Both the position numbers and the translations under genes were made by a program. The notes below the pieces were generated by a model. It was not told the DNA's origin and searched no databases. It was given only the letters and a program-made list of their open reading frames with translations. Shown piece after piece: positions 18,152-58,082 of a stretch of DNA of 59,202 bases (within the stretch, counting starts at the first letter, position 1; each line of letters begins with the position of its first letter). The stretch is from Ruditapes philippinarum. Its lineage: Eukaryota. The stretch lies in contig NW_026865121.1 of the NCBI RefSeq assembly GCF_026571515.1, positions 1 through 59,202 of the forward strand, read 5' to 3'.

Positions 18152-18218
18152 CGTTTAATGTGATTAACAATAAATACAATCCAGTAACTGAGCATAACGT
18201 ATTCCCTAGATGATGCAT
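18152..18218 (-). CDS. Leader exon, family A (MHHLGNTLCSVTGLYLLLITLN-G|gtacgt)
   Basis: 67-nt ATG-to-donor CDS, phase 1, collinear without indels with four other intact copies. Confidence 0.8.
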
Positions 18219-19404
18219 GTTTATTTCAATCACCACTGCTGAATATTCCTCTCCTAGATTTTAGTCAATCATAGAGAAAAGCTTCCTATACAAGAAATAA
18301 CGAGATAGGAATAATTGTATTCCTCTAGATAAAATTGCCCAGAGTTTGGACAGCTGTTCCTATTAGAAGAGGTCACGTTTAAGAATAACATTAACTCTAT
18401 TGTATTGTGTTTAGAAGAAAGTTGCATAAAATAAAATGCCGAAATGCGTTGATGCATTTTTATAAAACTTTCTAAATACATTAACTTTTAAATCAACATG
18501 TGTTCATATTATATCCTCATATTGCAACTTTATACACTGCTTTTGACCTGGGCATATCTGGTATGTAAAGTATATTTAATGTTATATCTGATAATAAATA
18601 ATGAGCAAAATTGCTCGTGTCATAATTCAGCAACTAGTGCCATACATTAATTACGTGATCATTGTCAAATGTCGGTAAACATGTAGTCTTGCACAAAGTT
18701 TCCTAGTTTTACAGTAAGCATATTTGTTTGCATTAGTGACAATGCGAAGCATATTTGACATAAGAAAATATAGCCAAAAGTTGTGTACATGCTACTGTCA
18801 CTTTTAATTTTCACTTTACTTTTACAAACTATGTCGGACACGAAATCACCGGGGAATATAAAAAATCTATTTCAAAGAATAAACATGGAAACCCCTGATC
18901 AGGAAATTTGCTATAAACTCGGCAAAGTCCTAAGTGTCCCAATTTGTAAGTAAACATATCCTTGCAATTTTCTCATTTTAGTTTACAACGAAGATACAAA
19001 CTATGAATATCTAATGTAATACTACCGTATACAATGTGTATTTATAAATTCAGGGAGACGTCTTGCATTGTGAAGCCGAACAGACTGCTAATTAATAACA
19101 TCCCGAGACATATTTTAATATCAATACATTATCAATGTTACGGTCAGGTTATATCTAATACGTTGTTGTTGTCTTTTATACATCGCTTAAGGCATGATAA
19201 AACTTATCCATATAACCGAAAAATACAAAAATGTTTAAAGTTATCAGTTTATTAGTTGGTCAATCATATGTTGTTTCCCGTCGTTATATCTATGTGCGGT
19301 ATTGTGTGACTGAATATGTTTACTTTGCGTCAAATAACAAGTTAACTCAAATACTGCATATCCCTTGCCGCGTTGATTGTATTTTAACACATTAAAAAAA
19401 AAAT

Positions 19405-19472
19405 AAACGTGACGCCAGAAGGGATCGAACCCTGGTTCCTAAATTCGAAGAAAGTACCTTAATCTCTCGACA
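19405..19472 (-). mobile_element. Degenerate tRNA-like / SINE head relic
   Basis: Minus strand gattaaggtact...ccagggttcgatcccttctggcgtcac contains a B-box/T-arm-like motif; no complete cloverleaf. Confidence 0.4.
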
Positions 19473-20043
19473 CCCCGCCCCCCCCCACCATTAGACACGT
19501 AGAGTATTTAACATTGGTACAGACATTTACTTTCATCTCTGAATAATTATGATATAATTAAAACACCGAATAACTTTGTTGCATACGTCTCGATAAACTA
19601 AAACAGAGGCAACAACATATAATGCAGTTATTTGTATCTGTTTAATCAGATATTCACACATTTTACAAGAAAAATAACCTGACAAAATTCTTATTTAGTC
19701 GGGAGCCCGCAAGAATTGTTTCTTGAAATAGTGCTCTACCGATTGAGCTTTTGCGGAAATCAATATGTACTACAAATATTTTCAGTAAATCGCAAATTCA
19801 GTTTCACGGGTATCATTTCAATTACCTATGATCATTACAAAGGACGATTCCATCGCATGCTATTAAGAAATCTGGAAAAAAAACTTCTGTTTACTGTGAT
19901 ATTTATGTCACTTATTATAAGTGATTTGTGCTCATTTTATCTAAGACTAAGTCTATAACAGAAAATGTTCTTTTATTAGTACACGATAATTGTAAATAAA
20001 TGTATATCATCGATCTGAATCCATTGCAAATTTAAAATAGATA

Positions 20044-55900: not shown

Positions 55901-57432
55901 TTGTGGTGTTTCTCATATAAGAAGAAATTTGTAACATGACGGTGTTTCTCGTATATGATGACATTTGTTACATGGTGGTGCTTCTCATATAAGAAGAAAT
56001 TTGTAACATGACGGTGTTTCTCGTATATGATGACATTTGTAACATGGTGGTGTTTCTCGTATATGATGACATTTGTTACATGGTTGTGTTTCTCATATAA
56101 GAAAAAATTGTAACCTGACGGTGTTTCTCGTATATGATGACATTTGTAACATTTTGGTGTTTCTCATATAAGAAGAAATTTGTAACATGACGGTGTTTCT
56201 CGTATATATGATGACATTTGTAACATGGTGGTGTTTCTCATATAAGAAGACATTTGTAACATGACGGTGTTTCTCGTATATGATGACATTTGTAACATGG
56301 TGGTGTTTCTCATATAAGAAGATATTTGTAACATGACGGTGTTTCTCGTAATGATGACATTTGTAACATTGTGGTGTTCTCATATATGAAAACATTTGTA
56401 ACATGACGGTGTTTCTCGTATATGATGACATTTGTAACATTGTGGTGTTTTTCCATATATGAAAACATTTGTAACATGACGGTGTTTCTCGTATATGATG
56501 ACATTTGTAACATGGTGGTGTTTCTCATATAAAAAGACATTTGTAACATGACGGTGTTTCTCGTTTATGAAGACATTTGTAACATGGTGGTGTTCTCATA
56601 TAAAAAGACATTTGTAACATGACGGTGTTTCTCGTATATGATGACATTTGTAACATGGTGGTGTTTCTCATATAAGAAGAAATTTGTAACATGACGGTGT
56701 TTCTCATAGAAGAAGACATTTGTAACATGACGGTGTTTCTCGTATATGATGACATTTGTAACATGGTGGTGTTTCTCATATAAAAAGACATTTGTAACAT
56801 GACGGTGTTTCTCGTTTATGATGACATTTGTAACATGGTGGTGTTTCTCATATAAAAAGACATTTGTAACATGACGGTGTTTCTCGTATATGATGACATT
56901 TGTAACATGGTGGTGTTTCTCATATAAGAAGAAATTTGTAACAACATGACATTGTAACGGTGTTTCTCGTATATATGACATTTGTAACATGATGGTTGTT
57001 CTCATATGTAACATGACGGTGTTTCTCGTATATGATGACATTTGTAACGTGGTGGTGTTTCTCATATAAGAAGAAATTTGTAACATGGTGGTGTTTCTCC
57101 TATTAGAAGACATTTGTAACATGACGGTGTTTCTCATATAAGAAGACATTTGTTACATGGTGGTGTTTCTCATACAAGAAGACATTTGTAACATGACGGT
57201 GTTTCTCGTATAAGATGACATTTTTAACGTGGGGGTGTTTCTCGTTTATGATGACATTAATTTTGTTACATGACGGTGTTTCTCATATAAGAAGAAATTT
57301 GTAACATGACGGTGTTTCTCGTATAAGATGACATTTGTAACATTGTGGTGTTTCTCATATAAGAAGAAATTTGTCACATGACGGTGTTTCTCATATAAGA
57401 AGACATTTGTAACATGACGGTACGTGTTTCTC
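52230..57432. repeat. 36-bp satellite array (~5.2 kb, roughly 140-145 monomers)
   Basis: Tandem gacatttgtaacatgacggtgtttctcatataagaa with variant blocks and a short interruption at ~54781-54808. Confidence 0.97.
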
Positions 57433-58015
57433 CTTAAAGCAATGATATTGTTAAAAATTTTCGATAATTTTTTAATTTTGATTATATATCATTTATACAA
57501 GAGCATTTATGTTAAGTTTTTTTTTTGTGATTTTAACATTATCTTTTTTTAAGTGTGTAAAAATGGTCGATTTACAAAAGCTTGCATAACAGCACCGTAT
57601 TTCACAACAAGACTTCTTTTTCGTTTCGGAGAGATGCTTAGTGAAGAAACCAGCATTTAAGATGATAACGATAACAATGAAAATTTTATAATGAAAATAC
57701 ATAACGAGTTTCTTGCTTGTTGATTAGCTTTATAGTCAGTAAGTACAAAAAGTGTACGGTTGTAGCCTATAATATTCATAAAACATATTTATTATAACGG
57801 ACATCAGTTGATAGATCCCTAATCTGACCTCTTATTTGAATAACAATAGATTTAACCACAAACATGGACATGTGCTCTTTTGTTAACAATTGGTTGAGGT
57901 GAAATTGTATCCACTACTTTGATAACTGGAATAAGACAGGTCAGGGATCTATGCATATACCATATACCGGTTTAACGAATTACTTAAATAAAAGTTATGA
58001 GATTTACACACTTAC

Positions 58016-58082
58016 CGTTAAAAACAGACGATAATAAATATAATCCAATCACTGAATAAACGGTATTCCCTAAATGATGCAT
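58016..58082 (-). CDS. Leader exon, family A (MHHLGNTVYSVIGLYLLSSVFN-G|gtaagt)
   Basis: 67-nt CDS with phase-1 consensus donor; MHHLGNT shared with the 18152 copy 40 kb away. Confidence 0.8.

Follow-up and report, generated by a model that had tools for sequence, protein, structure and literature searches.

Which gene do the short leader exons of this locus serve, and how should their number be explained? The window, that is, the whole stretch of DNA analysed here (59,202 nt of Ruditapes philippinarum, contig NW_026865121.1 of assembly GCF_026571515.1), contains a series of very short frames that run from an ATG through a hydrophobic segment to a splice donor, all of them read on the minus strand. 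We propose that they probably form a birth-and-death array of promoter-bearing first exons, each encoding a signal peptide and joined to one constant gene body that would lie beyond the left end of the window.

Two families of leader exons

A six-frame search revealed five 67-nt exons (family A), each starting with an ATG and ending at a G|gt donor; the ATGs lie at positions 18218, 25022, 29035, 32674 and 58082, and leaders are named hereafter by the position of the ATG. This is the set that a first-pass annotation of the same DNA had reported. The translations of all intact copies share M1, N6, G13-L14-Y15 and N22, again as the annotation had listed them. Copies 25022 and 29035 have one identical sequence and lie within a recent 4-kb tandem duplicate, so that the independent intact sequences number four rather than five. 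The four distinct copies showed ungapped exon identities of 0.60–0.79, in contrast to 0.22–0.42 for the first bases of the intron and 0.25–0.38 for the 60 nt upstream. The annotation had called the flanking intron sequence unalignable; the upstream sequence is not wholly so, as 18145–18287 aligns with 24949–25090 at 72%. In a position-weight profile scan, six family A copies, including a decayed one with its ATG at 21747, scored 25.1 or higher and the background scored −10.4 or lower, with no further copies in the window.

By scanning for hydrophobic ATG-to-donor frames, we found two additional leaders (family B), whose coding parts, starting at ATGs 10666 and 5380, are 49 nt each. Leader 10666 is possibly decaying (Table 1). 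Reading through its weak donor yields a 72-codon frame (10451–10666) with a second hydrophobic stretch, for which Pfam returned nothing firm and the best ESM Atlas score was 0.81, at the level of a lead. All seven undecayed leaders, five of family A and two of family B, have the same orientation and a phase-1 donor, and they are spread over 53 kb. The locus thus has the tandem same-strand arrangement of homologous first exons that characterizes a variable-first-exon cluster.

The family A leaders contain no charged residues, and their best 12-residue hydropathy values range from 1.49 to 2.25. Judged from hydropathy alone, each of the seven undecayed leaders is predicted to encode a signal peptide. 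Alternatively, they may act as uncleaved membrane anchors or as retained N-termini, in which case the isoforms would differ in the mature protein and not in expression alone. The invariant N6, G13-L14-Y15 and N22 residues and the lack of a basic n-region are in line with such a role; invariance of this sort exceeds what plain signal peptides usually keep. However, recent ancestry can account for the 6 of 22 positions that do not vary in the four paralogs, and a short hydrophobic stretch followed by a phase-1 intron is typical of cleaved signal exons. The stretch seen here is about 14 residues long and is followed by just such an intron, of which the signal exon of the Mytilus CRP-I genes, as described in part of PMC4558851, offers an example. 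We consider an anchor function very improbable.

Table 1. Coordinates of the leader exons and associated features in the window
Feature	Position	Strand	Remarks
Family A leader, coding part (22 codons + 1 nt, phase-1 donor)	58016..58082	-	most upstream module in the window; donor score 7.3
Family A leader, most divergent intact copy	32608..32674	-	donor score 6.2
Family A leader, identical to 24956-25022	28969..29035	-	sequence comparison
Family A leader, donor 24956 likely spliced	24956..25022	-	run X1 record 8
Family A copy, decayed	21681..21747	-	stop at codon 2, no GT donor
Family A leader, unique in having a strong upstream acceptor-like site (-67)	18152..18218	-	donor score 5.4
Family B leader (16 codons + 1 nt, phase 1)	10618..10666	-	weak donor (3.8); Asp within the hydrophobic stretch
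Family B leader (16 codons + 1 nt, phase 1)	5332..5380	-	strong donor (6.8); most downstream module in the window
Recent tandem duplication, 4-kb unit with one family A leader	22567..30627	.	no other recognisable coding exon
Probable transcript contig (X1 record 8) over the 25022/29035 module	24956..25330	-	covers the coding part and 308 nt before the ATG
Pyrimidine-rich motif, 44-67 nt before the ATG	25070..25083; also 18267-18280, 21791-21804, 29083-29096, 58136-58149	-	5 of 9 pattern matches
11-nt E-box-containing word	18349..18359 (upstream of 18218); 32771-32781 (upstream of 32674)	-	2 exact of 4 matches

Constraint, duplication and decay

To evaluate selection on the leaders quantitatively, we estimated the ratio of nonsynonymous to synonymous substitution rates (dN/dS) by the Nei-Gojobori method over 21 codons. 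The ratios were 0.24, 0.20 and 0.31 among copies 18218, 25022 and 58082. The three pairs that contain copy 32674 gave 1.14, 0.84 and 0.51, and the value pooled over all pairs was 0.45. Copy 32674 thus appears to be constrained in its frame and hydropathy more than in its sequence.

We then simulated four neutrally evolving lineages with 0.2 changes per site in each; across the four intact tips of the exon tree, the changes sum to about 0.9 per site. Local ratios of indel events to substitutions were taken from the duplicated segments of the window, 20 to 90 in the 4-kb duplicate (0.22) and 36 to 85 in another, of 7.9 kb. The simulated probability of acquiring no stop codon was 0.018–0.019, that of keeping both the ATG and the GT was about 0.02, and that of acquiring no indel was about 5e-6 at the indel ratio of 0.22 and 0.06 at a cautious ratio of 0.05, all of which overstate the case, since the copies were selected for intactness and a sixth one has decayed. 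Despite this selection of intact copies, constraint is a sound reading because the identity of the exons contrasts with the background-level identity of their flanks. The proposal of the first-pass annotation that the family A leaders are under purifying selection is therefore supported, by the dN/dS values of 0.20–0.31 in three pairs and by the simulated frequencies of stops and indels.

Both gain and loss of modules can be seen at the locus. The 4-kb duplicate consists of segments 22567–26601 and 26587–30627, which are 95.9% identical, and copy 21747 has lost its donor and its open frame. The annotation had further suggested a non-adjacent or larger-block duplication for the two most distant copies, 18218 and 58082. 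In codons 1–7, 19 of 21 nt are the same in both; over the remaining 46 nt, 18218 matches 25022 at 38 positions and 58082 at 29. The tree built from exons alone was unresolved, and adding 100 nt of upstream sequence joined 18218 with 58082 at 92/96, which is below the 95 mark of the tool. BLAST homology between the two copies spans 55 nt only, with no larger block visible. A block duplication is thus not established, and a shared ancestral state or local conversion would explain the likeness as well as it would.

Splice signals, transcripts and a proposed gene body

If the leaders are first exons, they should have donors but lack acceptors. Five of the 12 minus-strand donors that score 5.5 or higher in the 59 kb are leader donors, and that of 18218, at 5.4, falls just below this value. 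No acceptor scoring above 0.6 was found within 130 nt upstream of the ATG in seven of the eight modules (the seven leaders plus the decayed copy); 18218 has an acceptor-like site of score 6.6. The splice-site matrices used were rough ones, with which weak sites or micro-exons would be missed. At the left end of the window, strong minus-strand acceptors occur at 349–353 and 504, and acceptor 353 together with a good donor 4 nt later makes a possible micro-exon; we considered this pair as exon 2 and found no support for it.

As for putative promoter elements, module 58082 has a TATA-like word at −119 and an Inr-like (initiator-like) word at −88 relative to its ATG. The pyrimidine-rich motif in Table 1 was defined by a pattern derived from the same sites, which makes its excess over shuffled sequences circular, and the pattern for the E-box-containing word was chosen by eye from its two exact sites.

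Four of 24 listed sequencing runs, X1, X8, X22 and X24 among them, were mapped onto positions 16400–26560; the list gave no holder of the sequence on record as RNA. The mapped positions make up a stretch that contains the modules 18218, 21747 and 25022. X1 had depth in nine of 30 bins, as expected of RNA. Its record 8, a contig of 439 nt at a depth of 9.97, departs from the genome precisely after 24956, the last base of the exon, and has 64 further letters; that these follow 24956 is deduced from the end distances (42 at 25289 and 176 at 25155), which place the contig's own end at 25330. The record explains all of the X1 depth in its two bins. Two of its differences match the 29035 copy and a third diagnostic site matches 25022, so that it is not assignable to one copy. 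X8 contained a 214-nt piece over 25019–25232, which stops short of the donor. These observations indicate that donor 24956 is likely used in splicing.

The choice among leaders could also be made by splicing, if a shared non-coding first exon, located right of 58082, were joined to one leader at a time, with the leaders as mutually exclusive internal exons. The acceptor-like site 67 nt upstream of ATG 18218 would fit this arrangement, as would an AG after a short pyrimidine-rich block, which recurs upstream of several family A copies; the signal exon of CRP-I, in the portion of PMC4558851 that deals with it, is likewise exon 2. However, seven of the eight modules lack a good acceptor, and the X1 and X8 contigs are collinear with the genome for 308 and 210 nt upstream of the ATG, passing unbroken across the weak acceptor-like site of 25022 at −72. 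Internal exons are quite improbable in the face of these results.

The leaders might instead head tandem small genes, whose short hypervariable exons escape similarity searches, or families A and B might head two different genes, with a hidden exon in between. CRP-I genes combine a conserved phase-1 signal exon with a hypervariable last exon (PMC4558851, in part), and the roughness of our matrices leaves room for weak sites and micro-exons. Moreover, bin 16739–17077 had an X1 depth of 2.77 that no piece among those listed explains; the 64 spare letters of record 8 would give 1.88, less than the depth observed. On the other hand, the best acceptor in 16700–17120 scored 1.1, in the company of a 12-codon frame and no good donor by the same matrices, and in the 4-kb unit downstream of 25022 X1 depth was confined to a repeat-containing bin (23858–24196). 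When the eight intervals that follow the leaders were compared in translation, no coding exon was common to them, and the strong matches were the 4-kb duplicate and dispersed repeats. The only minus-strand open segment between a strong acceptor and a strong donor was an AT-rich 60-mer at 22904–22963. We found no convincing internal exon, no exon shared between leaders, no two- or four-exon immunoglobulin (Ig)-domain cassette and, in six frames of the window, no C-C-CC-C-C cysteine array; the identity of the locus as a CRP-I cluster was rejected on the last count. No relative of 12–72 amino acids was found in the protein search described below. Both of these arrangements are unlikely.

A number of results weigh against the array that we propose. 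The two families have 14–21 of 45 nt in common, where the background is 12.9 ± 3.0, by which homology between A and B is not shown, and the family A leaders have no basic residue. TATA-like words precede five of the eight modules, about what chance gives at 70% A+T (0.44 per 160 nt by our own estimate), and the 5′ end of the X1 contig lies 200 nt before the TATA-like word. The modules 29035, 32674 and 58082 and both family B leaders lie outside the stretch to which the runs were mapped, and the RNA status of X1 is itself a guess. The partner exon of donor 24956 was not seen among the 24 of 587 loose ends, 15 of 107 joints and 16 of 417 pieces listed. In the raw RNA runs X22 and X24, of which 4% and 6% were read, depth in the leader bins was below 1 and no higher than in neighbouring DNA. 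The unexplained depth in bin 16739–17077 belongs here as well. The first-pass annotation had assumed splicing at the leader donors; this is supported for donor 24956, by one contig, but not for 18218, which had no contig depth in X1 or X8.

Searches for the protein also count on this side. The profile of the four family A leaders found no relative among 290 candidates in the 90% protein library (73–2000 amino acids), none in the single candidate among proteins of 12–72 amino acids, and none at E 0.001 among all 1.84 billion representatives. With the library size set at 1.84 billion, the same profile recovers the leaders of the window at E values of 3e-9 or lower, and near-identical leaders would therefore have been detected. 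The family B profile gave none in five candidates from the 90% library. An A leader had no usable match in the ESM Atlas, and metagenome scans yielded no exact match and 125 pattern matches, none of which was confirmed. Rfam had no hit on the window, and two sub-threshold Pfam matches in six frames were rejected.

Some of these points would be expected if one leader, or one per family, headed a real gene and the others were orphan, disused 5′ ends left by partial duplication or deletion of paralogs. Donor use is indicated for one module only, and 18218 is silent in the contigs; one copy has decayed and the donor of 10666 is weak; and mussel CRP-I clusters mix genes with pseudogenes, some of which are defined by missing exons (PMC10138031, as far as its text on these clusters goes). 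Disuse accords poorly, however, with four copies that are 21–40% apart and keep frame, ATG and donor between flanks at background identity, or with dN/dS of 0.20–0.31 in three pairs. Any transcribed leader with a donor would, moreover, be expected to reach the same next acceptor anyway. We regard orphan 5′ ends as improbable and retain the array as our preferred reading.

The rest of the window consists of satellites, short interspersed elements (SINEs) and a decayed retrotransposon-like repeat. In the last of these, a unit of ~3.9 kb is repeated four times over 37227–52976 (two 7.9-kb copies at 97.5% identity) and carries a decayed integrase-like frame on the minus strand (near 37900–38700); we take it to be Gypsy-like, and Pfam gave no passing hit. 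Minisatellites occupy 52150–57460 (36-bp unit, about 140 copies) and 14391–16322 (33-bp unit, about 57 copies); the two units have a short core in common, and the 36-bp unit also ends each 3.9-kb repeat. A dispersed repeat at 20846–21051, present in both orientations, has shorter relatives at 3755–3858, 23848–23914, 27875–27941 and 36775–36850. It swamped the RNA mapping, with a depth of about 2800 per strand in X22; these reads come from copies elsewhere because they carry many other letters. We rejected the element as a second exon family, as it occurs in both orientations and keeps no frame. A tRNA-headed SINE lies at approximately 12960–13120, with a second tRNA-like head near 19408–19440. 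The SINE has a 16-nt core word and flanking similarity in common with BivaCORE-SINE1, part of whose core is also present in CORE-SINEs of other animals, according to sections of PMC4824008; words searched in the supplementary files of PMC11481361 gave no match. An imperfect palindrome of about 250 nt (8572–8823) is likely a miniature inverted-repeat element, and 3150–3760 is locally richer in GC.

A candidate leader array among multi-promoter genes

Alternative leaders of the proposed kind have precedents. In the IgLON genes Lsamp, Ntm and Opcml (1a/1b), separately promoted first exons carry alternative signal peptides and no other coding sequence, and processing leaves one and the same protein, as passages of PMC5288359 describe, and IGF1 has alternative leader exons of like kind (PMC3607797, in part). 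The leaders of the window, predicted from their hydropathy to be signal-peptide-only first exons, would resemble these. Whereas those genes have two leaders, however, the clam locus has seven and a decayed one, five of which are clear tandem paralogs still duplicating, in a bivalve and with a constant part that would lie outside the window.

In its layout, the locus is closer to the clustered Pcdh, UGT1 and GCNT2 genes, where tandem homologous first exons undergo birth-and-death turnover; the organisation of Ugt1, Gcnt2 and Ugt2a has been called vertebrate-specific (both from portions of PMC1885805). Variable first exons in such genes are each spliced to constant exons (PMC4835542, in part). 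Their variable exons are, however, large and encode specificity-determining domains, in contrast to the 49 or 67 nt, and 16–22 residues, seen here. Chelicerate sDscam, another invertebrate tandem 5′ array, has cassettes with promoters and leader peptides that expanded species by species, as the same source relates in part, but each of these is built from two or four exons that code for Ig domains, whereas the leaders here have neither an Ig exon nor any other exon after them. Duplicated 5′ coding exons with alternative promoters generate homologous N-termini in 39 human events (PMC8373072); these are mostly one-for-one exon swaps, and the main text of that paper does not use the term 'signal peptide'. 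The Mytilus CRP-I loci share with ours tandem arrangement in a bivalve, a conserved phase-1 signal-peptide exon and interspersed pseudogenes (parts of PMC4558851 and PMC10138031) but are whole four-exon genes with a cysteine array. The leader motif did not occur in the one CRP-I supplementary file searched, its sequence figures being outside the search. No paper on a molluscan array made up of signal peptides alone came up in a literature search beyond whose reach lay figures, bioRxiv supplements and most subscription journals. By analogy, the array would work like the alternative leaders of IgLON and IGF1 in a layout like that of Pcdh or sDscam, and appears to belong to neither family; it is likely a variant of known multi-promoter genes.

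The array that we propose would operate as follows. Each module would comprise a promoter, a 5′ untranslated region, a frame for the signal peptide and a donor in phase 1. In every transcript, the first donor would be joined to the acceptor of a constant exon 2 left of the window; leaders further downstream would be skipped because they lack acceptors, and the frame would be kept in all isoforms because all donors are in phase 1. With the signal cleaved, the mature secreted or surface protein would be the same or nearly so, and the array would diversify the place and time of the gene's expression and not its product. New modules would be gained by unequal crossing-over, and each new copy would immediately be a functional start, as suggested by the 4-kb duplicate. 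Modules that fall out of use would decay, as 21747 did. This scheme starts from the modules with their common strand and phase, their constraint, the fact that no other coding exon is recognisable, one recent duplication, one decay and one donor that is likely used, and it would add to them promoters of the modules' own, signal cleavage and a shared gene body.

More speculatively, the locus might be an independently evolved protocadherin-like array in which the variable unit has been cut to a promoter and a signal peptide, with at least seven modules of two types turning over in front of one secreted or surface protein. N6, GLY and N22 would then mark a leader role beyond targeting to the endoplasmic reticulum, and the number of modules could vary between individuals, setting dose or tissue range. 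We put this forward as a tentative possibility that may well prove wrong.

Leaders of this kind are missing from the protein libraries searched, which may matter for gene models. If the proposed array is real, regulation would have been multiplied by copying a promoter and a signal-peptide exon alone, rather than a whole gene, with a new and a dead copy in one locus. It would then provide a testable case of regulatory diversification in which the mature protein is unchanged.

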